A DNA stretch of 64,000 nucleotides from Bacilli bacterium (GCA_017619815.1 JAFZRR010000062.1:18963-82962), one strand, 5' to 3'; numbered from the stretch's first letter, positions 5,917 through 31,332 are shown. Made by a program: numbers and translations. The notes: generated by a model not told the origin, from the sequence alone.

Positions 5917-6762
5917 ATGAAAAAGACAAAAATTTTAGTACCAGCAATGGCGATCTTAGCATTAGGTATGGCCGGTGCTGTTACAGGTACCGTCGCTTGG
6001 TACTCCAGCACAAACGTTGTTTATGCTAAAGGCTTAACAATCAAATCAACAACCGCATCCTCATTACAAATTTCATTAGAACAAAACACAGGTTATGGCA
6101 CAGTTGTTGATCACTCTGGCACAACAGGTGATGCAGCCTATATGACAGCTGCAGTTGATCCAGCTTATTGTTTAGATGCGCCAGGCACACTTACAGCTGC
6201 TCCAGAATTTGTTTACTTAGACAAAATGAAAGTTGACAATCCAGGTAGTGGTACGGGCGAAGACAAATGGTATGTTGACGCTGCAGGTAAAGTACGTGTA
6301 TTCGCAGATAATACTTTAGTTGCCCCAGCTCATGCTGTCGCAAGCGGTGAAAACGCAAACCCATGGGTTGATGATGATCCAGAAGAAGGTACTGGTCGTT
6401 ATACAAACGTTAAATCTGACTCCGATTGGCTCAAATTAGACTCCACAGAAGAAAATCCTTCTAAAACAGTTACAGTCAAAGTCCACTTCTCTAGAGGTGC
6501 TGAACCAAAATTAATTGATAGAGCAATGTCATTCGGTTTCTACAATGTCAATACAAAGAAATGGGAAGTTGAAAAACCATTCACAGGTGATAATGTTTCC
6601 GCAACTAGTGTTGATGTTACATTCACACCCGTTACAGTTACAAAAACACCATCTGAATATATCTTCTATATGTGGTATGATGGTGAAGATGATGTCACAA
6701 TCAACGCCAACGCTATTGTTAACCCAATCGCTGCCGACATCACATACAGAATTTCTGACTAA
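5917..6762 (+). CDS. secreted protein with a SipW-cognate (TasA/camelysin-type) signal peptide
   Basis: The start was moved to ATG 5917, which has RBS AAAGGAAA; the track ORF begins at 5869. The N-terminus 'MKKTKILVPAMAILALGMAGAVTGTVAWYSS' resembles the TasA 'GGGTWAAFND' / camelysin 'GGTFAYFSD' class. A strong terminator follows at 6781..6806. Confidence 0.6.
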   Translation: MKKTKILVPAMAILALGMAGAVTGTVAWYSSTNVVYAKGLTIKSTTASSLQISLEQNTGYGTVVDHSGTTGDAAYMTAAVDPAYCLDAPGTLTAAPEFVYLDKMKVDNPGSGTGEDKWYVDAAGKVRVFADNTLVAPAHAVASGENANPWVDDDPEEGTGRYTNVKSDSDWLKLDSTEENPSKTVTVKVHFSRGAEPKLIDRAMSFGFYNVNTKKWEVEKPFTGDNVSATSVDVTFTPVTVTKTPSEYIFYMWYDGEDDVTINANAIVNPIAADITYRISD

Positions 6763-6780
6763 TTAATTAGCGTAATTAAA

Positions 6781-6806
6781 CTCCCGTTTCGGCGGGAGTT
6801 TTTTTA
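6781..6806 (+). terminator. rho-independent terminator
   Basis: The perfect hairpin CTCCCG-TTTCGG-CGGGAG is followed by TTTTTTT. Confidence 0.8.
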
Positions 6807-6976
6807 TGGATTTAGTAAAATAATTTGCTATACTAAACAAAGATTACAATGCACATTAGTAAGTAGAGTGCTTTGCACTCGATGATTTCAGATTATGACG
6901 CATAACCCACAAAACAAACAAAATAGTTTGATTATTTTCAATAAATGTTTATGATTTAATTAAGTGGGAATGAATT

Positions 6977-7369
6977 ATGAATAAAACCGCAAAAAAAATT
7001 CTAGTATTCACAGGGTTAGGACTTGATGTTGCTCTAACACTTTTCTTATTTGTCGTTGCTATTATTATGATTGCAACTATGCCAAAAGATTCTTTAGCTA
7101 TGGATCATGCGATTGAAACAAATGGCAAATTCATTGGTTATTTACAACAACATTCGACTTTGTACTTATTAACTTGTGTGCTTCCATTATTTGTTTTACT
7201 AGCTGGAAATATTGCTATTTTGATTCTTTATGTTCGTAAAATTAATAAAAAGAAAGAAGCTGCTATTGATGATCTTAATGAAGAACAAAAAGCCGCTCTC
7301 CGTGCAGAATTATTAAAAGAGCTTCAAAGCGAAGCAAAAGAATCTGAAGAAGATAAAAAGTCTGAATAA
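6977..7369 (+). CDS. small membrane protein with a KE-rich C-terminal tail
   Basis: There are two TM helices and a charged coiled-coil tail. A terminator-like hairpin follows at 7401..7431. Confidence 0.5.
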   Translation: MNKTAKKILVFTGLGLDVALTLFLFVVAIIMIATMPKDSLAMDHAIETNGKFIGYLQQHSTLYLLTCVLPLFVLLAGNIAILILYVRKINKKKEAAIDDLNEEQKAALRAELLKELQSEAKESEEDKKSE

Positions 7370-7451
7370 TCAAATAATATCAAACTATAAAAATCAAAAT
7401 AGCGCCGTTAAATCGGTGCTTTTTGTTTCCTTATTATAAATAAAATTAATG

Positions 7452-7481
7452 TTGACAAGATAAATATGATTCCTATATATT
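7452..7481 (+). promoter_or_regulatory. sigma-A-like promoter driving riboswitch 1
   Basis: TTGACA is at 7452-7457, and a 17-18 nt spacer leads to TATATT at about 7476-7481. The aptamer begins about 14 nt downstream. Confidence 0.45.
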
Positions 7482-7492
7482 TGATTATGTAA

Positions 7493-7572
7493 AAAGCAAA
7501 ACAGTAGTGATACTGTGACGCAAAACTATAGGGTCTTAATAAATAAGGGGTAAGACAGCCAGTTGCCTTGTG
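7493..7572 (+). promoter_or_regulatory. c-di-GMP-I (GEMM-I) riboswitch aptamer 1
   Basis: AGCAAAAC-[CAGUA-GUGA-UACUG]-UGACGCAAAACUAUAGGGUCUUA...UAAGACAGCCAGUUGCC. The P2 hairpin has a GNRA (GUGA) tetraloop. The hallmark 'GACGCAAA(A/G)CUAUAGGGUC' is present. The P3 stem is GUCUUA/UAAGAC, and P1 pairs GCAA with UUGC. All of this matches the GEMM-I consensus as in Vc2 ('GGGCAAACC...GGACGCAAAGCC...'). Confidence 0.8.
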
Positions 7573-7620
7573 GATAGAAACAAAACCACTGTTATGATGA
7601 TAGGCAATGGCTTTTTGTTT
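7560..7620 (+). terminator. riboswitch 1 expression-platform terminator
   Basis: The 5' arm CAGUUGCCU is the P1 3' strand. It can pair with AGGCAAUGG at about 7601-7609, which is followed by CUUUUUGUUUU. This is mutually exclusive with P1, which implies an ON switch. Confidence 0.5.
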
Positions 7621-7676
7621 TAGTCCTTGGGACACATATTAATAAAAGACAAGCACTATTAAATTCAATTTTCAAT

Positions 7677-8456
7677 ATGGTCGATCTTAAATACATACGC
7701 AAACGTAAGACAAGACGAATCATAGCGGCGGTTGGAACTTCTTGTGCTGCAACAGCGATTATTATGATGGCTATTGCATTATTAGGTCAGAGGGCCGCTC
7801 CTTTAACTGTTACTTTGTCTAACAGTGGGGCGCAGCTTGCTTTATCTCAACATGCAGAGGAAGATTCTAATGCTGTTTATTTGGTAGCAGATTCAGTTCC
7901 GAGATATGATGAGTTCTGTGAAGAACAACTCATTTTAGCCAACAATGAATTGGAAATAGATGACGAAAATACTTATTCTCATTTAACTCCAAATGAACAG
8001 TCTACACTTTTCTTTAAGTATACATTCTATGTTACTAACAAAGGAAAGAGCGCAGCTAACTATGATTTGACTTTGTCAATGTCTCAACCAACCAAAGACG
8101 CGACGAATCGATACGATCTCGATTCTGTTTTGCGTGTGCGCTTCTACGAAAATAAAAATTTAGATGAGCACAACTACGTTACGTACGCGAAGAAAAGTTC
8201 CGAACCACACAAAGATGAAAACGGTAATCTTTCTTGGAAAGAAAAAGTTTCCGCTTTAGATGAAAGTGGATATGCAGAAGAATTCGTAAATTCTAGAACA
8301 ATTCTTACTTCCGCGGTTACTGGTTTAAAACCACAAGAAAAGATTAGATATACATTTGTATTTTGGATTGAGGGCGATGATCCACAATGCATGGATGAAG
8401 CCCCTGTTAATAGTGCACTTATCCTTGGAGTCGAAATAAGTGCGCACGAATCGTAA
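7677..8456 (+). CDS. secreted or membrane-anchored protein, first gene of the riboswitch-1 operon
   Basis: The N-terminal signal-anchor is 'RRIIAAVGTSCAATAIIMMAIALLG'. No known domain was recognised. The start lies 57 nt after the riboswitch terminator. Confidence 0.55.
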   Translation: MVDLKYIRKRKTRRIIAAVGTSCAATAIIMMAIALLGQRAAPLTVTLSNSGAQLALSQHAEEDSNAVYLVADSVPRYDEFCEEQLILANNELEIDDENTYSHLTPNEQSTLFFKYTFYVTNKGKSAANYDLTLSMSQPTKDATNRYDLDSVLRVRFYENKNLDEHNYVTYAKKSSEPHKDENGNLSWKEKVSALDESGYAEEFVNSRTILTSAVTGLKPQEKIRYTFVFWIEGDDPQCMDEAPVNSALILGVEISAHES

Positions 8457-9537
8457 AATATTCAACATAGCAAAAGACCGACTAATAATGCTGGCAACAG
8501 CAGTATTGTTCAATGTATCTCTCGCAGCAGTCGTCTGCGGGACTTTTGCTTGGTATTCGTACGCGACGCGCACAGGATTGGAAAAAGCATATCATGGAAC
8601 CACCGTTGGTGACATGGGATCATTACAAGCCGGTTTGGTTAGTGAGATTCAATTAGAAGACTATCTTGAATATGATTTAGCTGAAGATGACAGAACACTT
8701 GCCGACGAAGGTAAATACATTTACTGGTGTCAAGAAAATATTGCTGCAAGAACAATTAATTATGTTTTAGATAGCAATGGATATGCTACAACTGAAATGT
8801 ATCCAGTTACTTCCAGCGCTTTTGATTGGAGTGTGGAGAATCCAGAGTCTTTTTCACTATATTCAACACCTACTTATCTAAAAAATTATGATAAAAACGA
8901 TCTAGACTTTTTAGCTAATCCAAGAGACTACTCAGTCATGGATTTTGTTTTTAGATTTGAAGATATTGATAACATTGGCGAATATTTACCTGGTTATAAT
9001 GTTTTTCTTTCTGGCTGCAAAGTCGAAACTTCAAATGAAGAACACGAGATTTATAAATCAGTTCGCATTTTTTACAACAACGGATACGAAGGTGGCATAA
9101 TAAACCCAACAGCGACAGAAAATGGTTTTGATGTTGTTGGTGGTGTTCTCGATTTGAATGCCGATAACTTTTATGATTATGATGAAGAAACTTTCTTTGA
9201 AACAATATATGGTGAAGTCGAAAGTTTTGAATACAATTCAGAAGCAACAGAAAATGATGGAACACTTCCTTGGTATGAAACCGATACATTTATTTCCAAC
9301 CATAAAAAAGGTGTCTTTGCCCTTAATGACGAAACATTTGTTCCTAAAACCGTAAATTATATCGAAGGTGGTAGATTCACTTCCAAAGCGAAACGTATCA
9401 CCTATACAGATGAAACATACCATAATCTTGGCCGTTTTAAGATGTATTTATATTTTGAGGGTTGGGATACACATGTTGTTAATGAAGAGCAAGGATTTGG
9501 TTATAACCTTGATTTAGCATTCGCAGTGCAAATGTAA
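8440..9537 (+). CDS. secreted protein with a SipW-cognate-type signal peptide
   Basis: The start is GTG, with GGAG 10 nt upstream. The N-terminus 'MRTNRKIF...LMLATAVLFNVSLAAVVCGTFAWYSYA' carries the shared motif. Confidence 0.6.
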   Translation: MRTNRKIFNIAKDRLIMLATAVLFNVSLAAVVCGTFAWYSYATRTGLEKAYHGTTVGDMGSLQAGLVSEIQLEDYLEYDLAEDDRTLADEGKYIYWCQENIAARTINYVLDSNGYATTEMYPVTSSAFDWSVENPESFSLYSTPTYLKNYDKNDLDFLANPRDYSVMDFVFRFEDIDNIGEYLPGYNVFLSGCKVETSNEEHEIYKSVRIFYNNGYEGGIINPTATENGFDVVGGVLDLNADNFYDYDEETFFETIYGEVESFEYNSEATENDGTLPWYETDTFISNHKKGVFALNDETFVPKTVNYIEGGRFTSKAKRITYTDETYHNLGRFKMYLYFEGWDTHVVNEEQGFGYNLDLAFAVQM

Positions 9538-10625
9538 TGTACTATATGGACAAGAAAAAAGTAGCATTATTTGGAATAGCTGGATTGTCGCTTGTATTAG
9601 CGGCATCTATTTCTATGACTATCGCTTGGTATAACGGTAGTTCGTATTTAGCTATTAATCAGATTAACGTTGGCTTACATGATAAGAAATTATCTATTTC
9701 CACAGATAATGAAACTTTTAGAGATTTCATTCCTAACGATGAACTGAATAAGGTTGGTAAATTCAGGGCCGTTAGTACGATGTTCTGCGAGGACTGGATT
9801 GAAAGAAAAGAAGCAAAACCTGTATTTAAAGGTAGTTTTGGTACATCATCCAAAGATGTTGTTAATAGTGTGGATGATGCCAACAATACCTCAGGCGGGT
9901 ACTTCTCACAAGAAATCTTCATCAAGTGTGATTCCTCTGTTTATTTAACGTTAGATCCAGAACTAACCACATTTAATTCCGATGAAGAAGAAAACTTAAG
10001 TATGATTCAGGATTTACGTGAAAAATTCCCTGGTTTAACTGACGAGGAAATCTTATTCAACCTCAACAACGTTGTTAAATCATTGCGTATTTCGCTTCTC
10101 GTCTTAAATGATACAGGGGATGAAAGTGAAGAATTTCCTGATTATGCCTACTATATTATTGACCCATTTAAGGATAAAATAACTTTAATGGGTGGTATCC
10201 TAGATACCGATAAAGATGGTTTCTACGACTATTCTTTAGATAAAAATGAAGTCCTATACGGTCAGTCAATCTCGACTGACGAGGAAAAGTCAGTGGAAGA
10301 ATGTATCGTTTATAAAGATCCTACTGAAGCTGATGAAGAAGTAAGCACAAAAGAACTCACATGCTTTACTTCCGGCAACAAAGCAAATGTTAGAAAAATT
10401 GATTTCGATGCTTCGTTTGCCAACGGCCTGGCTATTAAAGAGGAACGTTCAACCGCTCTCGAAGATGTGGAAGAACAAGTTTTAATTCCACTTGAAGCCG
10501 ATGTCTCGAAGAGAATTATCTTATCTTTCTACCAAGAAGGATGGGACATCGAAAATACGGACTTCGTTAGATATTCTCATTTCTATGTGAATGTCATGTT
10601 TAAAATTGCCAGGGCTAGATTTTAG
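9537..10625 (+). CDS. secreted protein with a SipW-cognate-type signal peptide
   Basis: The N-terminus is 'MDKKKVALFGIAGLSLVLAASISMTIAWYNGSS'. The start overlaps the upstream stop as TAATG. Confidence 0.6.
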   Translation: MYYMDKKKVALFGIAGLSLVLAASISMTIAWYNGSSYLAINQINVGLHDKKLSISTDNETFRDFIPNDELNKVGKFRAVSTMFCEDWIERKEAKPVFKGSFGTSSKDVVNSVDDANNTSGGYFSQEIFIKCDSSVYLTLDPELTTFNSDEEENLSMIQDLREKFPGLTDEEILFNLNNVVKSLRISLLVLNDTGDESEEFPDYAYYIIDPFKDKITLMGGILDTDKDGFYDYSLDKNEVLYGQSISTDEEKSVEECIVYKDPTEADEEVSTKELTCFTSGNKANVRKIDFDASFANGLAIKEERSTALEDVEEQVLIPLEADVSKRIILSFYQEGWDIENTDFVRYSHFYVNVMFKIARARF

Positions 10626-10636
10626 GAGGTGGACTT

Positions 10637-12187
10637 ATGTCTGCATATTTTAATTATTTAGGGAAGTTGCTTGCTCAATTCTTTAGAGATTTAGCAGCGT
10701 TTTTCTATCATTTGATAGTGTGTCCATGGGGTGGCCACAGTAAAGGTTGGCCAAACATTGGATATAATTTCAAACTTTATAACGATTATTTGAAGGCATA
10801 TTCGCCAGAATTTGGTCCTCTAGGCTGGATTATGTGGGTGTTATTCTTATTACTCGCTATCGGCATGATCGGTGGTGCGTGTTATGGATTATTCCTACTT
10901 ATCCGTAAGTATGTTAAGTTCGCTAAGACTGAACTTGATAAAGATGCTTTAAAACGTCAAGTCGAAAGACTCAATTACGAGTTATATGACATGATGAAAG
11001 AAAGAGATAAGATTCTTGAATTAAAGATGAAATCTTTAGGTATTGACGGAAAACGTCCACCTGAAGAAGGTATGTCTGAAGAAGAACAAACTATCGATGA
11101 GATTCAATCTCGTTTCCCAAAATTATCACACGTTGATAATGAATATAACGGAAAAGATATGTCTATTCCTGAAGTCCCAGATCTTACTCTTGCACAAGTT
11201 TGCGAAAACTTCAGAAACTTCGCAGCAAGCCAAATGGGCTTGTATTACACAATCGACACCATCCGTCATGTTATTGCCGGTATCGGTGCGGGTAAAATTG
11301 TCATCCTTGAAGGTATTTCCGGTACAGGTAAAACCTCCATGCCTTATGCCTTAGGAAAATTCCTCAAGAACGATGCCAATATTTGTTCTGTCCAACCTAA
11401 CTGGAAGGATAGAAGTGAACTCTTAGGTTACTACAATGAATTCACAAAGAAATTCAATGAATCAGAATTCTTAAGAGCCTTATATACTTCTATTTATAGA
11501 AGAGATGTTAACATTATCGTCCTCGACGAAATGAACTTAGCTCGTGTCGAATACTACTTCGCCGAGTTCTTATCCATTCTTGAAATGCCTAATCCAAATG
11601 AATGGAATATTGAAATGATTGGTTCTCGTGACCCTCACGATCCAAAACTATTTAAAAATGGCAAAATTAAAGTCCCACAAAATGTGTTCTTCTTTGGAAC
11701 AGCGAACAACGACGATAGTACATTCACAATTTCCGATAAGGTCTATGACCGTGCTATCTGTTTATTCTTTGACAATAAAGGTATTGCCTTTGATGCTCCA
11801 TTCCAAGGACCAATGGATATTCCTTATGAACAACTTCAACACTTATATGATGAAGCTCTTGAGAAATTCCCAGTGAGTGAGAAGACACTTGAAAACTTCG
11901 CTTTATTAGATGACTTCGTTATTAAAAAGTTCAGATTGGCGTTTGGTAACCGTATTTTGAAACAACTCAAACAATTCGTTCCATGCTTCGTTGCCTGTGG
12001 TGGCACTGAACTCGATGGTATCGACTTCATCTTTACTAATAAAATTCTTAAGAAGTTCGAATCCTTAAACATCGGCTTCTTAAAACAAGAACTTAAAGAA
12101 CTTAATCAAATGCTCGATAAATTGTTCGGCACAAACACATTCCCAATGGCCCGTAACTTTATCGATCGTATGATTAGAATGAACTAA
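10637..12187 (+). CDS. membrane-anchored AAA+ ATPase of the AAA_5 / McrB-like family
   Basis: RBS GGAGGTGG precedes the start. There is an N-terminal TM ('WIMWVLFLLLAIGMIGGACYGLFLLI') and a coiled coil. Walker A is 'ILEGISGTGKTSMPYALGKF' and Walker B is 'IIVLDEMNLARVEYYFAEFLSILE'. The sensor region 'FFFGTANNDDSTFTISDKVYDRA' follows the McrB/MoxR-dynein pattern. Confidence 0.7.
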   Translation: MSAYFNYLGKLLAQFFRDLAAFFYHLIVCPWGGHSKGWPNIGYNFKLYNDYLKAYSPEFGPLGWIMWVLFLLLAIGMIGGACYGLFLLIRKYVKFAKTELDKDALKRQVERLNYELYDMMKERDKILELKMKSLGIDGKRPPEEGMSEEEQTIDEIQSRFPKLSHVDNEYNGKDMSIPEVPDLTLAQVCENFRNFAASQMGLYYTIDTIRHVIAGIGAGKIVILEGISGTGKTSMPYALGKFLKNDANICSVQPNWKDRSELLGYYNEFTKKFNESEFLRALYTSIYRRDVNIIVLDEMNLARVEYYFAEFLSILEMPNPNEWNIEMIGSRDPHDPKLFKNGKIKVPQNVFFFGTANNDDSTFTISDKVYDRAICLFFDNKGIAFDAPFQGPMDIPYEQLQHLYDEALEKFPVSEKTLENFALLDDFVIKKFRLAFGNRILKQLKQFVPCFVACGGTELDGIDFIFTNKILKKFESLNIGFLKQELKELNQMLDKLFGTNTFPMARNFIDRMIRMN

Positions 12188-12239
12188 TTTTAATAAGCAA
12201 AAATTTGCTTATTATTTCCCCTTATATTAAACTATTACT

Positions 12240-14903
12240 ATGGCAAAATTATCAAAATATCAAACTCTCCAGAAGAAATTAATGGCTCAGACAACTAAGT
12301 TGTTTGATCTTAGTGATGCCAAAGAGCTTTATACTGCACTTTCTAATGGTCAAAATTCTTATTTAAGATTTGATAGATTTGAAAGTACCGCCATGGATAT
12401 GACATGGATTAAACAAATTGAAGACTGTATCCCAGACCTCAATGAAATCGTTTCTAATCCAAAAAGAACTATTCAAACTCTCGCTGAAGTCGTGGAAGTG
12501 GAAAAAGTTAAAAGAACTACCCACGAATCTGTTCAGCATTTAGCGAGCCATTCTCAATTCGTTAAAACCATTGATGAAGATGGAAATGTTACTCCATCTA
12601 AGATTTTGAATGTTTACAACGATGACTTCTTTGCAATTTACGAAAATAAATTCGTTGCTACATTATTAAGAAGATTATTCTTATTCGTGGAAAAGAGATA
12701 TGACTACATCATCCATCAAGCGACATTAAAAGATGTTGAGTTGTTATATTTCAAAAACAAAACCGAAATCAATGGTAGTGAAATTGAGATTGAAACAAAA
12801 ATCAGATATTCAAAACCAGCTTTGGATGAAGCAGATGAAAAATTAAAAGAAATGCTTCGCAGAATTAATGATATTAGAAGATATCTTAGATTCTTTGGTG
12901 GTTCTGAATTTATGAGAATCTTACATCGTGAAAGAGATGTTAGAAACCCAATTCTTCAAACAAACATTATTCGTAAGAACCCAAAATACAGACACTGCTA
13001 CCATTTGTGGCAATTTATCAATTCATATAATGAATCTGGTGTCGAAATTAAAGTTGAAGAAAACTTTGCTAAATTAACCGAAGAAGACTTAAAAGAAATT
13101 AATAAGGTTTTAACTATTAACTTCTTAGCCTTGAAAGGTAGAGATGCACCAGTTCAAGAAGCTAAACCAAAGATTTACCGTCCTCGTATTTTAAGAACGT
13201 ATGACGATGAAATGTACAATCCAGGTGCATCTTTTGACTCACCTGTGGAATTCGTTCGTGTTGATGAGAAATATCGTCAATATAAGGAAACTTTGAAAGA
13301 TCTCAATCCTCATCCTACTAAGGCGTACGCGGAATATATGAAAAATGAGTACGCGGATAATAAATTAAGAAGAGAAGAAACCGCTCAAAAGGATTCTTTA
13401 ATTAAGCGTAAAGAAAACGAATACAAGAAATACGAAAAGACCCAAGAAGAACTTCTCATCAAAGAACAAGAAGATTGGGAAATGATTGGTGATCTTGCTG
13501 AACAACAAATTCAGGAAGAACAAGAAGAAAGACTTAGACCACTTCGTGAAAAACTCGGTATCCAAGGTGATGAAGATGAAACAAGAATTAACGATGCCAT
13601 CTCCACTGAAGGACGTATGCAAGAAATCATCGAAGATGCTCCTATTAGAAAACCTTCTCAACCAGTCGAAGAAGAACCAGAAGAACTCGACTCCATGCCA
13701 ATTGAAGTGGCGGAAGAAGTCGTTAGTAAAAAAGAGCCTCAAAAAGAAGAATCACAACAACCAGCCGAACAACCTAAAGAAGAAAAAGTTAAGGGCAGTT
13801 GGGGTGGTGCTCGTGCAGGTGCTGGTCGTAAACCAAAACCACGTCCTGAACCTGTAGAGGAAGTTCAAGAAGAACAACCACAACCTGAACCAGAACCAGT
13901 CGTGGAAGAAAAGACTGAAGAACCTGTTAAAGTTAAGGGTTCATGGGGCGGAGCACGTCCAGGCGCAGGTAGAAAACGTAAGGTTGTTGAACCAGTAGAA
14001 GAAGCTCCTGTTGAGGAAGAACCTGTGGTTGAAACTCAACCAGAACCTGTCCAAGAACAAGAACCAGTCAAGGTCAAAGGATCTTGGGGTGGTGCAAGAC
14101 CTGGCGCAGGCCGCAAACGCAAAGTGGTTGAAGAACAACCTCAAGAAACTCAACCAGAGCCGCAGCCAGAACCAGTTATAGAAGAACCTCAACCAGTTGC
14201 TGAACAACGTGTCAAAGGTAGTTGGGGCGGAGCTAGACCAGGCGCAGGAAGAAAACGCAAAATCGTTGCAGAACCTGAAGAAGTTAAGGGAGAAACTCCT
14301 ACAGAACCAGAGCCAATTAATGAATCAGAACCAGTAAAAGTGAAAGGCTCATGGGGAGGTGCACGTCCAGGTGCTGGTCGTAAACGTAAAGTGGTGGAAG
14401 AACAACCACAAGAAGCTGCTCCAATTGAAGAAAAACCAGTTGAACAACCACAACCTATAGAAGAAAAAGTTAAAGGATCTTGGGGTGGTGCAAGACCTGG
14501 AGCTGGTAGAAAACGTAAGGTTGTTGAACCTGAACCAGTCGTTGAAGAAACACCAGTTCAAGAAACTCCTATAACAGAAGAACAACCAGTTAAAAAACAA
14601 CGTGGTGGTTATCGCCCAGGTGCAGGTAGGAAACCGAAGAAACCAGTGGTTCATATGGAAGCAGTGGAAAACACACCTGCTGAAGTTGTTATTAAAAAGC
14701 AAAGAGGTGGCGCACGTCCTGGTGCAGGTCGTAAACCAAAACCAAAGACCGAGCAACCTATTAAAGGCAAATGGGGAGGCGCAAGACCAGGAGCTGGCCG
14801 TAAGCCAAAACCAAAATCTGATGTGCCAGTCGTAAAGAAACAACGTGGTGGAGCACGTCCTGGTGCAGGAAGAAAACCAAAACCACGTCCAGAAAACGAA
14901 TAA
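12240..14903 (+). CDS. cytoplasmic repeat protein: about 330-aa N-terminal domain, an E/K/Q/P-rich linker, then about ten 'GGARPGAGRK(R/P)K' basic repeats
   Basis: There is no signal peptide. The units 'VKGSWGGARPGAGRKRKVVE' recur every 42-48 aa from about aa 517, and the final four are 'KKQRGGARPGAGRKPKP'. It is tightly linked within the operon. Confidence 0.6.
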   Translation: MAKLSKYQTLQKKLMAQTTKLFDLSDAKELYTALSNGQNSYLRFDRFESTAMDMTWIKQIEDCIPDLNEIVSNPKRTIQTLAEVVEVEKVKRTTHESVQHLASHSQFVKTIDEDGNVTPSKILNVYNDDFFAIYENKFVATLLRRLFLFVEKRYDYIIHQATLKDVELLYFKNKTEINGSEIEIETKIRYSKPALDEADEKLKEMLRRINDIRRYLRFFGGSEFMRILHRERDVRNPILQTNIIRKNPKYRHCYHLWQFINSYNESGVEIKVEENFAKLTEEDLKEINKVLTINFLALKGRDAPVQEAKPKIYRPRILRTYDDEMYNPGASFDSPVEFVRVDEKYRQYKETLKDLNPHPTKAYAEYMKNEYADNKLRREETAQKDSLIKRKENEYKKYEKTQEELLIKEQEDWEMIGDLAEQQIQEEQEERLRPLREKLGIQGDEDETRINDAISTEGRMQEIIEDAPIRKPSQPVEEEPEELDSMPIEVAEEVVSKKEPQKEESQQPAEQPKEEKVKGSWGGARAGAGRKPKPRPEPVEEVQEEQPQPEPEPVVEEKTEEPVKVKGSWGGARPGAGRKRKVVEPVEEAPVEEEPVVETQPEPVQEQEPVKVKGSWGGARPGAGRKRKVVEEQPQETQPEPQPEPVIEEPQPVAEQRVKGSWGGARPGAGRKRKIVAEPEEVKGETPTEPEPINESEPVKVKGSWGGARPGAGRKRKVVEEQPQEAAPIEEKPVEQPQPIEEKVKGSWGGARPGAGRKRKVVEPEPVVEETPVQETPITEEQPVKKQRGGYRPGAGRKPKKPVVHMEAVENTPAEVVIKKQRGGARPGAGRKPKPKTEQPIKGKWGGARPGAGRKPKPKSDVPVVKKQRGGARPGAGRKPKPRPENE
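13786..14900 (+). repeat. in-frame coding tandem repeats (about 126-144 bp units, degenerate) encoding the GGARPGAGRK motifs
   Basis: AAGGG(T/A)TC(A/T)TGGGG(T/C)GG(T/A)GC(A/T)(C/A)G(T/A)CC(A/T)GG(T/C)GC(A/T)GG(T/C)(C/A)G(T/A)AAAC(G/C)(T/A)AA recurs at 13792, 13933, 14071, 14215, 14341, 14467, 14590, 14695, 14764 and 14839. Confidence 0.8.
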
Positions 14904-14916
14904 AAAGAATTAATTT

Positions 14917-15696
14917 ATGTTTGGAAAAGACAAAAAAGAGAAAAAACCTAAAAGTAAAGCCAGGAAGATAATCGATTGGGTTGTCACTGGTGTCTTTGTG
15001 GCATTAATTACTGGAGTAGTCGTTGTCCAAATTATAAATAAAACAAGTAAGAACCAATTCGTCCTCGGACCTCAATATCAAAAGGTTCTTACAGACTCAA
15101 TGTCCCCTGTCTATAAAGTTAACGATATTATTGTCGTTGAAAAGACAAGTGCAGCAGATTTGTATAAAAGGGTGAATGAGAAACACCAAGATGTTGATCT
15201 TTCATTTAAATGGGATATTGATGGCCAAGAAGTTTCTATGACGCATAGACTTCAAACAGTGACGTATTCCGAGGAAGTCCAATTTGATCCAATCTCTGGC
15301 GTTGGATACCATTACACATTTGTCGCACATGGTATCAATAAAACCAGTGAATGGTGTAAAGGCACTGGTGGCTACTATGATTGTACAAATCAAACTCAAA
15401 CGTTCCATGAGGATGCAATCATAGGAAGAGTAACTAGAAAGAGTTACTTGATGACCTTTGCGACATCTATATGGGGATTACTAATATTATTATTAGTGCC
15501 TTGTATGTATCTCATCATTGCGAGTGTGCTTGATATATTCAAAGCGGTGAAAGATGATGATGAAGTTCCTGCAAATGGTGAAGTAGTGGGTGAAGCCAGT
15601 GATAAACCAAAAGATCCACTTGCTGGATTAAGTGAAAAAGAAAAAGAAAAACTCAAGAAGCAAATGCTTGATGAAATGTTAGGAAAGAAAAAATAG
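14917..15696 (+). CDS. sipW: SipW-type (S26B, archaeal/ER-type) signal peptidase I
   Basis: The N-terminal TM is followed by 'VLTDSMSPVYKVNDIIVVEK' (B. subtilis SipW has 'VLSGSMEPTFKTGSLIAVKK', catalytic Ser). The catalytic His context 'SMTHRLQTV' parallels SipW 'AVTHRIVDI'. There is a C-terminal TM anchor and a KE-rich tail. Confidence 0.75.
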   Translation: MFGKDKKEKKPKSKARKIIDWVVTGVFVALITGVVVVQIINKTSKNQFVLGPQYQKVLTDSMSPVYKVNDIIVVEKTSAADLYKRVNEKHQDVDLSFKWDIDGQEVSMTHRLQTVTYSEEVQFDPISGVGYHYTFVAHGINKTSEWCKGTGGYYDCTNQTQTFHEDAIIGRVTRKSYLMTFATSIWGLLILLLVPCMYLIIASVLDIFKAVKDDDEVPANGEVVGEASDKPKDPLAGLSEKEKEKLKKQMLDEMLGKKK

Positions 15697-15717
15697 TTAG
15701 AAAGGAGAAGCGAAAGT

Positions 15718-17253
15718 ATGTACAAACAAAAAAGAACTGCTCGTGCGTTATTTATTGTCTTTCTTGTTTTTACAGTTGTTGGATTGATTAGCATTGTTGC
15801 TTATCAATTTGTGCCACAGTTAAAGGACTATCACTTTATTACTTTAGGTGCTGCTTTAATCACATGTGGTTATGCTGCGGTTGCTTTTGCTAACCTTTAT
15901 AAATTAATTTCCTACAATGAACAAATCCGTTCTCTTTATGTGGAAAATAGATACAACCTTTCTCGTGAAAGCTTGTTCTATAACTACACAATGTTTGAAA
16001 AGAGAATTAATAAATTAACCAAATTACATAAGAAATCGGGTTCTTATATCATTGCATTCACTGCATCAAAGAGAACCGTCATGAGAAACTTATATAGAAA
16101 CGGAACTGTTACTCAATTAAATGGTTTCATTTCTGACTCATTAAACGAAATCTTGAGTCATAACAAACAATATGAACAAGATGATTTTGCATATTGTTAT
16201 TACCATGGCCAATTTGTCATCTATACATACTTACCACTTAACAAAGTGCAAGATATCATTTTGAACATTCAAAAAGAAATCTACGCAATTGTGGCAAGAA
16301 ATGACTTAAAGGTTTATACAATACCATATTTCGGTGTTGCGGATGTGAGACCAGAATTATCTTTATTTGAATGTTTAGATAACGCATTAACTGCAAGAGA
16401 TTATTCTGAAAAGCACTTTGAAGCGGAAACATTCTATTCTGATGATTTAAGAAAAGATGCTTCTTTAAGTGAAGTTGAAGAATTAAGAGAAGCTATCAAG
16501 AACAATGAAATGGAAGTTTATTATCAACCAAAATTCCATTTAGCCACGAAGAGGTTTGTGGGCTGTGAAGCTTTGGTGAGATGGAATTCTCCAAGATATG
16601 GTTTATTAGCACCAGGCAGATTCTTAGATAAAGCAGAAATCTCTGGTTTAATTCATGAAATTGATATGTTTGTCTTTAAACGTGTCTGTGAAGACTTAGC
16701 GTCCATTCGTAGAAAAGGTGACAGAATGCTTCCTGTCTCTGTCAATTTCTCTATGTATGAATTCTATTCACAAGACTTCTTTGACAACATCTCAAAGATT
16801 ATTAATAAAACCGGTGTTTCTACTTCTTTGATCCAAATTGAAGTTACTGAAACAACCGCACAAGCAAATCCATTTATGACCACATCTATTCTTAAGAAAC
16901 TAAAAGAAAATGGTTTCCGTATTTTAATGGATGACTTTGGTTTAGGTTTTTCTAACCTAGGTAATTTAAACAGAATGGAATTTGATACAGTTAAGATTGA
17001 TAAGACATTTATCGATGGTTTAATTACCGACGCAAAGAGTAGAGAAATCGTTAAATTCTTAATTGCTTTATGTAAAACAAACAATATGGAAGTTATCGCT
17101 GAAGGTGTTGATAAGGTGGAACAAGTGGAAATCTTAAGAAAAGCCAAATGTGATGTTATTCAAGGTTTCTATTATTCCAAACCATTACCAATCAGAGATT
17201 ATCAAGACTTCCTAAAGAATAACCCATTTGAAAAGAAAGAGGAGGCTGAATAG
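15718..17253 (+). CDS. membrane-anchored c-di-GMP phosphodiesterase (EAL domain)
   Basis: RBS AAAGGAGAAG precedes the start and there are 2 N-terminal TM helices. The EAL motifs are intact: 'GCEALVRWNSP', 'LMDDFGLGFSNL', 'IAEGVDKVEQ' and 'QGFYYSKP'. Confidence 0.8.
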   Translation: MYKQKRTARALFIVFLVFTVVGLISIVAYQFVPQLKDYHFITLGAALITCGYAAVAFANLYKLISYNEQIRSLYVENRYNLSRESLFYNYTMFEKRINKLTKLHKKSGSYIIAFTASKRTVMRNLYRNGTVTQLNGFISDSLNEILSHNKQYEQDDFAYCYYHGQFVIYTYLPLNKVQDIILNIQKEIYAIVARNDLKVYTIPYFGVADVRPELSLFECLDNALTARDYSEKHFEAETFYSDDLRKDASLSEVEELREAIKNNEMEVYYQPKFHLATKRFVGCEALVRWNSPRYGLLAPGRFLDKAEISGLIHEIDMFVFKRVCEDLASIRRKGDRMLPVSVNFSMYEFYSQDFFDNISKIINKTGVSTSLIQIEVTETTAQANPFMTTSILKKLKENGFRILMDDFGLGFSNLGNLNRMEFDTVKIDKTFIDGLITDAKSREIVKFLIALCKTNNMEVIAEGVDKVEQVEILRKAKCDVIQGFYYSKPLPIRDYQDFLKNNPFEKKEEAE

Positions 17254-17254
17254 T

Positions 17255-17992: not shown

Positions 17993-17997
17993 TAATT

Positions 17998-21100: not shown

Positions 21101-21103
21101 ATC

Positions 21104-26883: not shown

Positions 26884-26901
26884 TGTTCGACCTCCTTATT
26901 A

Positions 26902-29900
26902 CTATGTTGATATTTTTGTATATGTTATTGTCAGATTCACTATTTGGCAGTTGTTATCATTAGTGACATATAACATAAAGTATGAATAACTTGTGTTTGT
27001 ATTTGTTAATGTAATTGTTGCACCTTTAACTGCTTTTGCTAAGTTTGTGGCATTTGACGGAGTAGTTAAAGCAGTTGCCCCATAACTAATACTTAATATT
27101 ACTTTTTCGGATGTGTTGTTTGAGTAAGTGAAAACAATTTGAGAAATATAATAACCACTTGGTGCACTAATATTTCTTAAATATGCACCAGTTTTACCGA
27201 ATAAAATATAAGTCGTAGATGATGGATTTGCTGCAGATGCTTTAGCACCATTTCCTCCACCGAAAACTAAACCAGCGCCATCACCCGTAAGAGTTTGATC
27301 GCCTTGCGTTCCTGTAATGCCATAGAAATTCTGTGTAAAATCAAGTGATATAACCACGGTATCGGATTGGCTTCCTCCGCTGCTAACCGTAATAGGTTGA
27401 GCACATGTTTTGCCTTGATATGTAATAGTTATAGAAGTATCGGTTGTTGTTAATTCATAAGATGTTGTTGGGCTGAATGTAAAGCCGCTCGAGTTGCTAG
27501 CATAAGAAACATCAGTTGTTGATCCATCATTGTAATGTAATGTGATTTCTAAACCAGTAGGATCAAATGTTTCTCCAGCTGTATATGCAATTTTTGTTGG
27601 AGCTGTTTTAACTGAAATGCTGACCAAAGAGACAACCGGTGCTACGTTTGTTTCGACTTTCTTATATAATTCAATACTCGATTGTGTGCTTGTGTATGGA
27701 ATGAAACGGCCACTTCCGTTGTTGTGATTGTATTGCAAACTACCACAGTCTGCATTTGTACTTGTTATTGTGGCTGTTCCACTGCTTATTGAAACAGTCC
27801 AAGTTCCAGTTCCGTTACTATCGTAGTTAATTTTCTTTGCTGCTTGGGTATATAATTGACCACTCGATGATGTAAATGTCCAAGCGCCTGTTGTACCGCC
27901 TACTGTAAATTCAACACCATCACATTTGAATGGAATTGTACCATTGTTATCAATTGTAACGGAGGCAGGCAATAACAAATCACCAGATTTTGCGCCAGCA
28001 ACCACATTGTATTGAGCACACCCAATTAATACTATGTCGCCAGCAGCTAATCCTGCAGTACTGGTAATCCTTTGATAAATATAATAGACAGGTCCTGTGC
28101 TAGACACAGTGATTGAATATGTCGTTTCTTTTGTAACACCACCTTCTGTATAAGTGATAGTAACTGTCTTTGAACCAGATGTTGACATATCTGGAGAACT
28201 AATTGTTAAATTTGGTGAGGAAGTGACATTTGCGGTCGTACCATCGCTATATGTTGCTGTAACAACACCATTTCCAATCGTAAATGTATCACCAACATTG
28301 AATGTTACTGTTTGTCCACTTATAGCAATTGATGATAATGTTTTAGTTAAATTTGACCAAGTTAAAGTGAATGTTGCTTCTACTGGATTGCCATTTGAAT
28401 CTAAATCAGTAGTGGTCGCTTTTATGGTTGCGCTTCCAGAAACAGAGTTAATAGAGATTTGTCCTGAACTTTGATTAATTGTTAATCCTGTTCCGCTTGT
28501 TATTGACCATGTAACATTGTTACTTGTTGTAGTATCGCTATATGTAACGAGTGCGGTTGGCGTCCAAACATATGGAATAGTTCCGTTTGAAACAGTCTTT
28601 GTTCCACTCGTTATATCGGTATTTCCATCTTTAATTGCTAATGACGTGACGGAAGCAAGTGTTCCTTGTTCGTAATAAATAGTGTAGCTTTCGCAATAAA
28701 GTGAGTTAACAGTTGCGGCAATTGTTAAAACAACATTTTGACCATTTTGAACTGTTAAATCATTAGTTATCATTGGTTCAACTGTGACGAAATTAGTTGA
28801 CCATGATCCATGCCAACTTGAATCATTAAAGTTAGCAGTGGCAATGGAAGAAATGGTGTTGCTTCCGACAACAGCGTTAAAATTACCAGCACCTTTATCG
28901 GAGTTGGATTTCATACTCAAAAGAATTCTTGTGATTTTATAACCTTTATAACCGCTTAAAGTTAAGGTCATTGAGTTACCTGCGGTTAATTGATATTTCT
29001 GATTATAAGTGGATGAATATATAGCACTCGAGCCAGATGGAACATCTCCTGATGCAGTAACTGCACTAGTAGATGTAATTGTGTAAGTTGCATATGTTTC
29101 CGAACCATCAGAAACCCTAATAATGCATGTATCTTTAATATTTGTGCCGTGAATAGTTGCAGTAAGGGTAGATGTACCTGCCGCCAAACCATAAACAGTA
29201 ATTGTTCCATTTTGTATTTCGAAGTTAGAACCTGTGTATGTGGTGGATGAAGTTAATACGGTTGCATCGGAGCTTGAAAATGATAAAGAACCTGATGTTC
29301 CTATGATTGACCAATCGACATCTCCATTAAACGAGAAGTCTAATGTTAAACTCGAGTTCAAAGTAATTACTTCATTCGTTCCATCAATATCTATATTGTA
29401 ATTGTAAATAGTGATTTTAAACGTCTTATCAGCGTAGAAGTCACCTAATGTTGCGCCGCCATTATAATGGACAAGAACTGAAAGGTTATTTCCTGAAATA
29501 TTTAATGTTTGACCATTAGCATAATATGTTCCGCCAATACTAAAAACACAATCTGATGTGACATCGATCTCACCAACTGTTGCAAAGTGTCCTGTAACGA
29601 CCAAACCACTTGTGTCGAATTGATCACCTTTAACATATGTTGTTTTAGTTGGTTGAGTTGTAATGGCAATATATTCAAGAACATCTGCTAAAACAGTGAT
29701 AGGGAATGAACCATTTTTTGTAGTACCTCTATCCGTATATGTAACATTAATGGTTTTTGGACTACCAATGTTAGTGAATACAGTTTTATTTGGAATTAAT
29801 GTTCCTTCGCCTGAAGTCGTGTAAGAGCAATCGGAAGTTACATTAAGTGTAAACGTATCATTATTAGGTTTTGTATATGTTGCGATACATGTTATGCCCC

Positions 29901-31332
29901 TTAAACTGAAATATTCACCGACACTATAAATTGCATCTGAACCTTGTGGTCCGGTAATAGATAAACTTGTTAAGGAAGCACTAATGATGTCATTTTCATG
30001 GAATCGATATAAACTAATGTCATTTTTGGACGTTCCATAATACGCAAATTTGGAATTAGCAGTGTCATATTGCATTTGCATTGAACTGTGTGCGGCAGAT
30101 TTAACAACAGCAGAAGTCCCGTTATATGCTAATGTATTAGACATATTTTCAGCACTAGAATTAGAAATGATGCCGTCTGTTGTTGTGTTGTTACCAACAT
30201 AGTAGTTGTTATCTGTGCGGTATGTTCCATTTGCTCTATCATATGTTAAAGAGGCATCATCAATTGCATCAGTTGAATAAACTGTGTCTTTTCCGTTTGA
30301 TATATAATCACCAATATTTAATTGGTTGTTGTTTGTATTGATACCACTTGATGATCCAATTGTTTCAGAGCCTGTTGCTTTTGAACCATCTAAAATTTGT
30401 TGGCTAGAATCTGTAATGTATGAAGATAAATATTGGCCGCTATAAGAGCCGCCAACATCATTCATACGAATGTATTTGCCTGTATTATTATTTCCATAGG
30501 TTGAAGTAGAAAAATCTCTAATATAGAAATCAATATTAGAAATATCACCAACAAGATTATGAATGGCATCTGTGGAATTAATATGGTCTTCAACGAAGCC
30601 ATCGACTAATTTTTCATTATATGAACACTCAATATAAACGATTGATTTTTTAATAGTACCAACATTATATAGTTCAGGAACAATTGTAATCTTGTTGCCG
30701 TTTTCTGGATCAACAGGTTGATTGTTCATCAAAGAGATAAACGTTGATGGTGTTTTTCTAGAAGCAAAATACGCAATAGAAGTTCTATACATTGCGTCTT
30801 CTTCATCTTTATAGGTTCCTTGGTCTTCTGAAATGCCAACACCAATTGGTATTGCAGTATCACTATTAAATGGTGTGTATGAAGTAGCGATGCATTGGAA
30901 TTGAACAACGTTCGAAGTTAATAATCTAATGCCATCAGCATCTGTTAATGTTGAACTAGCTAATTTGCGAACATCAATTTCAACTGCCTTCGTGGTTGTA
31001 TCCAATCCATTAGGAAAAGATAATTCGGTTCTGATAACGATATTTGAATAAACATTTCTAGCTTTAATGTATTGGTCGTAATCAGGCAATACAAATTCGC
31101 TTGCATCATTAGTAAAAGCAACACCCTTCTTTAGGTCGTCGTCATATTTTAGAATTGTAAAATTATCAATAATTAAATTTCTTGATGCCGATTTAATTGA
31201 AAGATTGGTGGAGTGTGTAACTTTATTAGAATTGTACCAGGCGAACGTGGCTGCGCCTGCAACTGCAACAGAAAAAGAAAGATTGGCGATTGCGCCTGCT
31301 AATGCTAAAACTTTCTTTTTACTTAGACTCAT
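26902..31332 (-). CDS. giant secreted/surface protein with multiple Big_3 (bacterial Ig-like) repeats and a SipW-cognate-type signal
   Basis: The likely start is ATG 31332, 'MSLSKKKVLALAGAIANLSFSVAVAGAATFAWYNSN'. The track start at 31377 lies inside the riboswitch terminator loop. Repeated Big_3-like units include 'TKTTYVKGDQFDTSGLVVTGHFATVGEIDVTSD', 'TKIAYTAGETFDPTGLEITLHYNDGSTTDVS' and 'VTFNVGDTFTIGNGVVTATYSDGTTANVT'. Confidence 0.7.
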   Translation of the reverse strand: MSLSKKKVLALAGAIANLSFSVAVAGAATFAWYNSNKVTHSTNLSIKSASRNLIIDNFTILKYDDDLKKGVAFTNDASEFVLPDYDQYIKARNVYSNIVIRTELSFPNGLDTTTKAVEIDVRKLASSTLTDADGIRLLTSNVVQFQCIATSYTPFNSDTAIPIGVGISEDQGTYKDEEDAMYRTSIAYFASRKTPSTFISLMNNQPVDPENGNKITIVPELYNVGTIKKSIVYIECSYNEKLVDGFVEDHINSTDAIHNLVGDISNIDFYIRDFSTSTYGNNNTGKYIRMNDVGGSYSGQYLSSYITDSSQQILDGSKATGSETIGSSSGINTNNNQLNIGDYISNGKDTVYSTDAIDDASLTYDRANGTYRTDNNYYVGNNTTTDGIISNSSAENMSNTLAYNGTSAVVKSAAHSSMQMQYDTANSKFAYYGTSKNDISLYRFHENDIISASLTSLSITGPQGSDAIYSVGEYFSLRGITCIATYTKPNNDTFTLNVTSDCSYTTSGEGTLIPNKTVFTNIGSPKTINVTYTDRGTTKNGSFPITVLADVLEYIAITTQPTKTTYVKGDQFDTSGLVVTGHFATVGEIDVTSDCVFSIGGTYYANGQTLNISGNNLSVLVHYNGGATLGDFYADKTFKITIYNYNIDIDGTNEVITLNSSLTLDFSFNGDVDWSIIGTSGSLSFSSSDATVLTSSTTYTGSNFEIQNGTITVYGLAAGTSTLTATIHGTNIKDTCIIRVSDGSETYATYTITSTSAVTASGDVPSGSSAIYSSTYNQKYQLTAGNSMTLTLSGYKGYKITRILLSMKSNSDKGAGNFNAVVGSNTISSIATANFNDSSWHGSWSTNFVTVEPMITNDLTVQNGQNVVLTIAATVNSLYCESYTIYYEQGTLASVTSLAIKDGNTDITSGTKTVSNGTIPYVWTPTALVTYSDTTTSNNVTWSITSGTGLTINQSSGQISINSVSGSATIKATTTDLDSNGNPVEATFTLTWSNLTKTLSSIAISGQTVTFNVGDTFTIGNGVVTATYSDGTTANVTSSPNLTISSPDMSTSGSKTVTITYTEGGVTKETTYSITVSSTGPVYYIYQRITSTAGLAAGDIVLIGCAQYNVVAGAKSGDLLLPASVTIDNNGTIPFKCDGVEFTVGGTTGAWTFTSSSGQLYTQAAKKINYDSNGTGTWTVSISSGTATITSTNADCGSLQYNHNNGSGRFIPYTSTQSSIELYKKVETNVAPVVSLVSISVKTAPTKIAYTAGETFDPTGLEITLHYNDGSTTDVSYASNSSGFTFSPTTSYELTTTDTSITITYQGKTCAQPITVSSGGSQSDTVVISLDFTQNFYGITGTQGDQTLTGDGAGLVFGGGNGAKASAANPSSTTYILFGKTGAYLRNISAPSGYYISQIVFTYSNNTSEKVILSISYGATALTTPSNATNLAKAVKGATITLTNTNTSYSYFMLYVTNDNNCQIVNLTITYTKIST

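Follow-up and report, generated by a model that had tools for sequence, protein, structure and literature searches.

We describe a gene cluster in a stretch of 64,000 nucleotides (nt), hereafter the window, from an uncultured Bacilli bacterium of ruminant gut metagenomes. Five proteins encoded here begin with the same kind of leader, in which a hydrophobic segment is followed by a small residue, a tryptophan and a second aromatic residue, and three of them are encoded shortly upstream of a divergent signal peptidase of the endoplasmic reticulum (ER) type. The original prediction had counted six such proteins and regarded them as a regulon of substrates of this SipW-like peptidase. Genes are named below by their lowest coordinate, and the motif-bearing genes, their motifs and the peptidase gene are as follows (aa, amino acids):

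5917-6762, plus strand: first-slot protein, 281 aa, candidate major subunit; leader residues 1-27, predicted cleavage between A27 and W28; motif GTVAWYSS at 5986-6009
8440-9537, plus strand: motif protein, 365 aa, candidate minor subunit; motif GTFAWYSY at 8539-8562
9537-10625, plus strand: motif protein, 362 aa, candidate minor subunit, C-terminal half paralogous to that of 8440; motif MTIAWYNG at 9615-9638
14917-15696, plus strand: divergent ER-type (Sec11/SipW-like) signal peptidase I, 259 aa, with N- and C-terminal transmembrane helices
22567-26883, minus strand: motif protein, 1438 aa, candidate accessory adhesin; motif STVSWFSA at 26784-26761
26902-31332, minus strand: motif protein with Big_3 domains, 1476 aa, candidate accessory adhesin; motif ATFAWYNS at 31251-31228

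A six-frame translation of the 64 kb contains exactly five matches to the strict pattern [GASM]T[VFIL][AS]W[YF], each in the N-terminal part of a long open reading frame (ORF), where it follows a basic n-region and then a hydrophobic stretch; chance is thereby excluded. These are the five strings quoted originally, all present at the named genes just after the hydrophobic core. The looser core [AS]W[YF][SN] adds just two matches, both in frames interrupted by stops, and the six-frame pattern search found no W-[YF] motif in the remaining 38 kb of the window. The sixth protein that had been counted is therefore absent. Two further proteins, 44626 and 53056, had been put forward as weaker members, but both read STLAF[SK]N, without the tryptophan and without an aromatic second residue; they were rejected as Big_2 and clostripain (C11) proteins unrelated to the cluster. 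The GTG start of 8440 is backed by alignment from residue 1 in relatives.

The leader recurs across 76 related loci (1.1 Mb in total), which were recovered from species-representative genomes searched with the peptidase alignment and which each span only ~10 kb on either side of the peptidase match. Labels among these relatives include Clostridium sp. CAG:288 and Candidatus Onthovivens, and we assume that they and the present metagenome-assembled genome (MAG) belong to the GTDB order RFN20. Searching all six frames with the pattern x[TSA]x[AS]W[YF] returned 190 matches, 147 of them directly behind a hydrophobic N-terminal stretch. The motif is found on all 11 homologues of 5917, 44 of the 55 homologues of 8440 and 45 of the 51 homologues of 9537, as well as on 44 further ORFs, ~42 of which look real and have an N-terminal signal. 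Family members failing the pattern mostly have AWW, AFF or SFY at the equivalent position, so that the aromatic second residue is retained even in these variants. None of 270 homologues of the other cluster proteins considered (6977, 7677, the ATPase, the DUF2357 protein and the peptidase, described below) carries the motif, and a spread to many cytoplasmic proteins, the outcome named originally as speaking against a substrate class, was not seen among the related loci sampled. Motif-bearing relatives of the 22567 protein occur in few loci, near the cluster.

Motif ORFs are linked to the peptidase gene in position as well as in occurrence. Motif ORFs, as a rule three or four, are present 5' of the peptidase in 36 of the 37 loci where at least 8 kb of sequence is available on that side, and the sole exception carries a 5-kb insertion that pushes the motif ORFs past the contig edge. 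In all, 146 motif ORFs lie upstream of the peptidase and 13 downstream, with ~0.5 Mb scanned on each side. Comparison by tblastn revealed a conserved order of variable first-slot gene, 6977, 7677, 8440, 9537, AAA_5 ATPase, DUF2357 protein, peptidase, EAL, PNP-like and EAL genes, and both the position of the cluster and this order are fixed in every locus with enough sequence, at peptidase identities of 25-80%.

The leaders share a common layout of a basic n-region, an h-region conserved in sequence, a small-residue c-region ending in [TS]-x-[AS] and then W-[YF]. T or S at -3, A or S at -1, W or F at P1' and Y, F or W at P2' are common to all five window proteins and ~150 relatives. Positions -3, -1 and -4 to -7 fit a cleavage site, while the unconstrained positions are compatible with the c-region of a signal peptidase substrate. 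Similarity does not end at the predicted site: positions +7 to +16 after the tryptophan alternate between hydrophobic and polar residues, HHalign matches the 5917 family to the 8440 family (98% probability) and the 9537 family (96.5% probability) over residues ~1-55 only, and the 26902 protein is 35% identical to the N-terminus of 5917, including ~30 residues past the site. The 8440 and 9537 families match one another at 99.9% probability and are paralogous in their C-terminal halves. On these alignments the conserved element is a module of ~55 residues that reaches ~25 residues past the predicted cleavage site, beyond the signal peptide. As a side observation, 12 of 22 first-slot leaders weakly match Pfam DUF6520 over residues 1-27 (best E 0.021) and the NCBIfam Psb35 model matches the hydrophobic region in 19 of 22, both probably driven by composition.

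Variation behind the leader is greatest in the first-slot gene. Its leader is invariant among the 22 homologues aligned, and homologues in a large protein collection retain MKKTKILVPAMAVLALGMAAAVTGTVAW[YF]S while their bodies diverge until unrelated. An exhaustive profile search for the 5917 family recovered 1,950 representative clusters, 663 of them at E<=1e-10, and T-x-A-W-[FY] is present in 140 of the 141 top new representatives. Across these 141 sequences, 16 leader positions are at least 90% conserved as against a mean column identity of 11%; conservation of the leader over diverging bodies implies selection on the leader itself. Two homologues with bodies unrelated to that of 5917 (P0012 and P0022) sit in the identical first slot of the cluster. 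At the DNA level, the 5' untranslated region (UTR) and first ~35 codons are 86% identical to those of related locus L083, compared with 75-76% for the flanking genes, and the body of the gene (6021-6901) has no detectable DNA homology to its L083 counterpart (7382-8277). This cassette-like swap has sharp boundaries, and the leader region outscores the neighbouring genes in conservation, which suggests recombination anchored in the leader of the first-slot gene. The gene is moreover provided with a promoter-like site of its own and is followed by a strong terminator:

6778-6801, plus strand: terminator-like hairpin with a 10-bp stem and a T-run, directly 3' of the first-slot gene

An invariant N-terminus, an interchangeable body and an insulated transcription unit are together the pattern of a major filament subunit. 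An AlphaFold model of 5917 (predicted local distance difference test score, pLDDT, 72.6; predicted template modelling score, pTM, 0.70) has a confident beta-sandwich body, leaves residues 1-59 unstructured and contains no long N-terminal helix. A PDB sequence search with the single protein gave no useful match, and Foldseek searches of the PDB with the model returned generic jelly-roll matches with low template modelling scores (TM-scores), among which the archaeal AbpA pilin (7UEG) ranks second. The model is compatible with a subunit of the TasA/AbpA/BsaA type that donates its N-terminal strand.

The family of the peptidase encoded at 14917 numbers at least 344 proteins from metagenomes, with a precomputed Pfam domain in none of the 120 listed. 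The 14917 protein itself stays below the cut-off on both models that it matches, NF046067 for SipW (1.3e-12, 47.6 bits; curated threshold 190 bits) and TIGR02228 for archaeal signal peptidases (3e-5, 23.9 bits; threshold 51.85 bits). Three boxes, T-D-S61-M-x-P, T-H110-R and G139-I-N141, are invariant in 23 aligned homologues of 40-80% identity. A profile of the family has only three PDB matches, to SEC11A, SEC11C and SEC11A (E 0.04-0.2), whereas a PDB sequence search with the single protein gave no useful match, so that SEC11 is reached by the family profile only. S61 and H110 align to Ser56 and His96 of human SEC11A, and G-I-N to its G-D-N. The AlphaFold model (pLDDT 72 overall, 76-94 in the core) comprises an N-terminal transmembrane segment, a beta core, a C-terminal transmembrane segment and a cytoplasmic helix, and its top Foldseek matches are human SEC11C in first place (7p2q; probability 1.00, TM-score 0.53 on the target), then Escherichia coli LepB and Streptococcus pyogenes SipA. 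By these sequence models, boxes, SEC11 alignment and predicted fold, 14917 is a homologue of ER/SipW-type signal peptidases in which the Ser/His pair is intact and the aspartate of the GDN box is replaced, in line with its original description as SipW-like. In Sec11 and SipW the aspartate of this box is important, and the invariant D94 and E165 are candidates to substitute for it. As had been stated, only one SipW-like peptidase is encoded in the window, which has a single S-x-S-M-x-P box within a real ORF; a LepB-type gene was not found in the window.

The cytoplasmic C-terminal helix of the peptidase is itself conserved (DPLAGLSxxxKExLKKxMLxEML; window 15628-15693, residues ~238-258). Canonical SipW and Sec11 are not known to have such a helix; in the present family it might be where the cytoplasmic ATPase/DUF2357 pair docks.

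A scan of the whole window with Rfam at gathering thresholds gave exactly two matches, both riboswitches of class I for cyclic di-GMP (c-di-GMP), and each heads a unit that contains motif genes (RF01051 gathering score, 35 bits):

7452-7481, plus strand: promoter-like site TTGACA-18-TATATT (11 of 12 matches; consensus match only), ahead of the riboswitch
7485-7570, plus strand: c-di-GMP-I aptamer (RF01051, 63.4 bits), heading the operon 7677-21051
31381-31457, minus strand: second c-di-GMP-I aptamer (RF01051, 57.6 bits), immediately 5' of the gene 26902-31332

The first position is conserved across the clade. Of 14 relatives scanned with Rfam, 13 have an aptamer 5' of the 7677 homologue (47.6-68.3 bits), and in the fourteenth the position lies off the locus. 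A clade-specific covariance model built from 18 aptamers found 51 copies, 47 of which lie within the 76 related loci, where 36 head 7677 homologues, five precede the corresponding first gene of the most divergent loci and six precede accessory genes. All 31 assessable 7677 homologues are preceded by an aptamer once an ORF-calling artefact is discounted. The accessory genes headed in this way are motif genes in L011, L055, L067, L071 and L078 and a gene with an AWL variant in L069. In both window riboswitches the 3' strand of the aptamer can be drawn into a hairpin that precedes a T-run, as would be expected of ON switches; minimum free energy structures of the two expression platforms differ, and their z-scores are weak (-1.4 to -2.1). 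The longest ORF of the 26902 gene begins at ATG 31377, inside the hairpin right after the aptamer, and ATG 31332 (MSLSKKK..., with a normal n-region), as assumed originally, is the likelier start. In L011, the aptamer that precedes the giant accessory motif gene (16217-16292) scores best as c-di-GMP-I-GGC (RF03167, 60.7 bits; gathering score 59), a hint that ligand specificity may have changed in one of the paralogous units.

Because riboswitches head both units, the term regulon gains a basis independent of the leader. The shared leader by itself defines only a set of substrates, and to that extent the term as first used went too far; by riboswitch placement, 8440, 9537, 26902, probably 22567, and the peptidase probably form a c-di-GMP-controlled set to which 5917 does not belong. 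Riboswitch-controlled surface and colonisation factors are known in Clostridioides difficile (PMC6200980).

The remaining genes and sites of the cluster are listed here:

3315-4466, plus strand: GGDEF diguanylate cyclase (Pfam GGDEF 1.1e-24), a local c-di-GMP source, included as context only
6977-7369, plus strand: membrane protein of 130 aa with two transmembrane segments, syntenic and motif-free
7401-7420, plus strand: terminator-like site 3' of the 6977 gene
7677-8456, plus strand: protein of 259 aa with a very basic n-region and one transmembrane helix, candidate uncleaved membrane anchor; no motif in 38 homologues
10637-12187, plus strand: membrane-anchored McrB-like AAA_5 nucleoside triphosphatase (NTPase), 516 aa (Pfam AAA_5), syntenic in 62 loci
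12240-14903, plus strand: DUF2357 (McrC N-domain-like) protein, 887 aa (Pfam DUF2357 1.5e-6)
15718-17253, plus strand: EAL phosphodiesterase (the two EAL genes match Pfam EAL at 9e-69 and 1.1e-25)
17228-17992, plus strand: PNP_UDP_1-family protein (Pfam PNP_UDP_1 1.4e-8)
17998-21051, plus strand: large transmembrane and EAL protein, the other of the two EAL genes

A GGDEF gene lies upstream in L083 and L084 also, and the distal part of the operon (15718-21051) is syntenic in 52-71 loci. The ATPase is the best-conserved protein of the cluster (57-94% identity, 141 positions conserved at 95% or more). It matches McrB in the PDB (E 0.002) and the PADLOC model PDC-M26A (1.7e-39), but a transmembrane segment, present in 59 of 59 homologues, and a coiled coil stand in place of McrB's DNA-binding N-domain. 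No cluster protein other than the ATPase has a PADLOC match. Conservation of the DUF2357 protein in relatives is limited to the first ~450 aa, and a conserved D..(D/E)xK nuclease triad was not found in 63 homologues. Its C-terminal half (13700-14900) contains ~12 basic repeats (KGSWGGARPGAGRKRK, KKQRGGARPGAGRKPKP) separated by acidic, proline-rich spacers; the repeats look like AT-hook-type or polyanion-binding elements. In L017, L033, L035 and L051, ~5 kb of extra DNA lies between the DUF2357 and peptidase genes.

The C-terminus of 7677 is weakly similar to the subunit families. Proteins 5917, 7677, 8440 and 9537 all end in a strand and an acidic turn (W-Y-D-G-E-D, W-I-E-G-D-D, Y-F-E-G-W-D and Y-Q-E-G-W-D, at 6720-6760, 8380-8420, 9480-9520 and 10560-10600, respectively), where HHalign detects weak similarity only (probabilities 6.5-61%); this is a hint of a common fold for 7677 and the subunits with the motif.

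Among known systems, the closest parallels are the SipW-dependent matrix proteins. TasA and camelysin (CalY), with which the motif had been compared originally, were quoted correctly: the TasA sequence used here reaches 513.8 bits against the TasA model, and TasA and CalY match TIGR04088 as positive controls (TasA 38-42 bits, CalY 54 bits; curated cut-off 19 bits). The parallel holds for T at -3, A at -1 and an aromatic P2', whereas the leaders of this clade mostly fail TIGR04088. A comparison with that model, as originally suggested, reports just one of the five window leaders (5917, 14.1 bits against the cut-off of 19) and leaves the other four unreported; 12 of 141 representatives match at E<=0.1 (best E 0.008), and TIGR04088 is nonetheless the curated family matched most often by clade leaders. 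TasA (AFND), CalY (YFSD) and TapA (AFHD) have an acidic P4'. Here that acidic residue is absent and P4' is Y, S, A, G or T (WYSS, WYSY, WYNG, WFSA and WYNS in the window). At the sequence level, membership of the TasA family was rejected, as PF12389, NF046066, TIGR04089 and TIGR04090 are unmatched by the window proteins, the 22 first-slot homologues and the 141 representatives. One of 109 distinct leaders matches the TasA model, at E 0.057. We conclude from these comparisons that the leader appears to work like a SipW-cognate signal, yet is a distinct variant outside the curated class.

Both tapA-sipW-tasA of Bacillus subtilis and sipW-calY of the B. cereus group resemble the present cluster in their conserved leaders, which likewise combine T at -3 with A at -1 and an aromatic P2' (TWA/AF, TFA/YF and here TVA/WY, a slash marking the site), and in having beta-sandwich bodies with an unstructured N-terminal segment and major and minor components. 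They differ in that P1' is here invariably W or F, the Asp at P4' is absent and there is no Peptidase_M73/TasA signal. The peptidase itself forms a family separate from SipW (~260 aa, an insertion, G-I-N for G-D-N and a conserved cytoplasmic tail), and genes for a membrane-anchored McrB-like ATPase, a DUF2357 protein and EAL proteins, together with c-di-GMP riboswitches, are additions of the present cluster. In Clostridium perfringens, sipW-bsaA-bsaB-bsaC likewise places SipW beside several secreted matrix proteins, for which a disordered N-terminal loop is proposed to enter the neighbouring subunit by donor-strand exchange and efficient release needs ATPase-containing machinery (PMC7395162, PMC11580942). 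The ATPases of that system are, however, type IV pilus proteins encoded elsewhere, whereas the one described here is McrB-like and lies within the operon, and no TIGR04090/BsaA match was found among the 22 first-slot homologues and 141 representatives. Archaeal AbpA/AbpB (7UEG) share a jelly-roll subunit, a leader processed by signal peptidase I and an N-terminal donor strand (PMC9245690), but in archaea no dedicated peptidase is encoded nearby, and the structural match to 5917 is weak.

Type IV pilins and archaeal proteins with class III signal peptides also combine an invariant N-terminus with a hypervariable body, a separately transcribed major subunit, minor subunits, a peptidase and an ATPase. 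Unlike here, type IV pilins are cut at G/F..E before the hydrophobic segment by an aspartic prepilin peptidase, while the predicted site of this clade follows that segment and the peptidase has an S26 fold. A type IV pilin reading was rejected on these grounds, the leaders having no G/F-x-x-x-E site, 5917 no long helix and the cluster no ATPase of the PilB/PilT type. The c-di-GMP regulons of C. difficile, another Firmicute, similarly have class I aptamers in the 5' leaders of surface and colonisation genes (PMC6200980), but the riboswitch described here heads a whole operon including the peptidase and two EAL phosphodiesterases.

Overall, we consider it probable that this cluster encodes a surface fibre whose subunits carry a specialised leader cut by the cluster's own ER-type peptidase and assemble through a shared strand module, with 7677 as anchor and riboswitches in control. 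The motif proteins would be exported by Sec, and the ER-type (Ser/His) peptidase would most likely cut between A and W. LepB is reported to cleave poorly with an aromatic residue at P2', and TasA, with Phe at P2', is processed by a dedicated ER-type SipW (PMC10269814). A dedicated enzyme would be needed here because bulky aromatic residues at P1' and P2' are poor for LepB-type enzymes. The first ~25 residues of the mature proteins, with their strand-like alternation common to unrelated bodies, would serve in assembly much as the N-terminal donor strand does in TasA, BsaA and AbpA (PMC9245690, PMC11580942). This element would join the hypervariable major subunit 5917 with the minor subunits 8440 and 9537 and, optionally, the giant adhesins 22567 and 26902, while the uncleaved 7677 would anchor the fibre on the membrane. 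The c-di-GMP-I riboswitches would control expression of all but the major subunit, with a GGDEF gene upstream and two EAL genes in the operon. We infer cleavage between A and W by this peptidase, polymerisation and anchoring by 7677, as well as some part in the system for the McrB-like ATPase and the DUF2357 protein. For this pair we argue for such a role rather than one in defence because of its universal synteny, its membrane anchor and the lack of a nuclease motif.

Several observations weigh against this scheme. The peptidase falls under every curated threshold tried and has no Pfam match, S24 and S26 included, and the Asp of the GDN box is Ile throughout its family. Just 11 of 109 distinct clade leaders match TIGR04088 at E<=1 (best E 3e-4). 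In structure, the 5917 body resembles TasA-like pilins only weakly (TM-score 0.22-0.30, poor root-mean-square deviation), and TasA is not among the top 50 Foldseek matches of the model. Discarded peptides do not usually have an h-region so close to invariant, and the segment could be retained. The McrB-like/DUF2357 pair is without precedent in TasA-type systems. Lastly, no riboswitch lies 5' of 5917 (Rfam, E<=1), where one was sought because the 5'UTR is more conserved than the flanking genes.

A more far-reaching version, which we put forward as speculative and rather doubtful, is that the cluster encodes a new surface-filament machine of possibly wall-less gut Bacilli. In it, a Sec11/SipW-like enzyme would act as the 'prepilin peptidase', interchangeable bodies would be carried by the ~55-residue assembly module, and an McrB-like NTPase with a nuclease-less DUF2357 partner would power assembly, extrusion or retraction, the whole being switched by c-di-GMP.

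Three rival explanations are less well supported than the surface-fibre reading. The first is that 14917 is simply the only type I signal peptidase of reduced genomes and that T-x-A followed by an aromatic residue is its general preference. A house-keeping role would be in keeping with the lack of a LepB-type gene in the window, with the other exported window proteins being lipoproteins or carrying T-L-A/F and none a classical A-x-A secretory protein, and with the role of ER-type enzymes as general peptidases of archaea and eukaryotes (PMC10269814). We nevertheless regard it as unlikely, as the motif and the near-invariant leader are confined to the surroundings of the peptidase, with the upstream bias described above and none in the other 38 kb, and the aromatic P2' is missing in 44626 and 53056. 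A position in mid-operon, together with the putative substrates and under a riboswitch, would also be odd for an essential enzyme.

Slightly less likely again is that the hydrophobic N-terminus stays on the protein, where it would either anchor it in the membrane or form a core helix like that of pilins, A-W-Y/F being an interfacial belt of aromatic residues, and that the peptidase homologue is a chaperone resembling SipA or cuts another target. The h-region is near-invariant in sequence beyond what mere hydrophobicity would require, pilins classically pair a conserved N-terminus with a variable body, the GDN box lacks its Asp, and S. pyogenes SipA is among the structural matches of the peptidase. 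SipA reportedly lacks the catalytic Ser and His, however, and both are invariant in all 23 aligned homologues of 14917. Residues -3, -1 and -4 to -7 moreover fit a cleavage site, the anchor-type protein of the cluster (7677) has no motif, and there is neither a G/F..E prepilin site nor a long N-terminal helix in the AlphaFold model. In favour of retention, released proteins would need an anchor if these bacteria are indeed RFN20 members, as assumed above, and lack mraY and murG, which are reported missing from most RFN20 genomes (PMC7301438). Against it, the leaders of TasA and CalY are also unusually conserved, yet are cleaved (PMC10269814).

Mere common descent, or an McrBC-type anti-phage island with surface sensors in which the motif is unlinked to the peptidase, is very improbable despite the homologous N-terminal modules and the matches of the ATPase to McrB and to the candidate defence model PDC-M26A, given the selection evident on a leader >90% conserved over such divergent bodies, a fixed position and order unlike those of sporadic defence islands, a DUF2357 protein without a conserved nuclease triad, the lack of any other PADLOC match in the cluster, and riboswitches and EAL genes that point to surface or biofilm physiology; a defence-island reading of the McrB-like/DUF2357 pair is accordingly not favoured.

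The cluster is an unannotated variant of the theme of SipW and its cognate substrates, set in a larger, riboswitch-controlled cluster. A whole lineage of uncultured gut and rumen Bacilli has this distinct version, which current profile libraries leave unannotated: the peptidase family has no Pfam match, the leaders mostly fail TIGR04088 and the subunit families have no domain assignment. Three of its features have not been reported for TasA-type systems: the major subunit varies by exchange of cassettes, much as in pilins; a membrane-anchored McrB-like NTPase and its DUF2357 partner are encoded in the operon; and this operon is under the direct control of c-di-GMP riboswitches while itself including EAL genes. 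If the surface-fibre reading is true, the leader would be a marker for the surface proteome of these organisms and the system a natural test case for how an ER-type peptidase handles aromatic P1' and P2' residues, and it would point to a possible non-defence role for an McrBC-like motor.

Two sequences carry labels from outside the Bacilli despite a Bacilli-type cluster or leader, locus L082 (Muribaculaceae) and homologue P0018 (Alphaproteobacteria); these labels are probably binning errors in the source MAGs. The window also contains a second surface-protein region (43101-56214) with three clostripain-like (C11) proteins, a lipoprotein at 43101 and the large Big_2 proteins 44626 and 53056, which have paralogous N-terminal domains. 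Between 44626 and 53056 lie four tandem paralogous lipoproteins (48724-52799).

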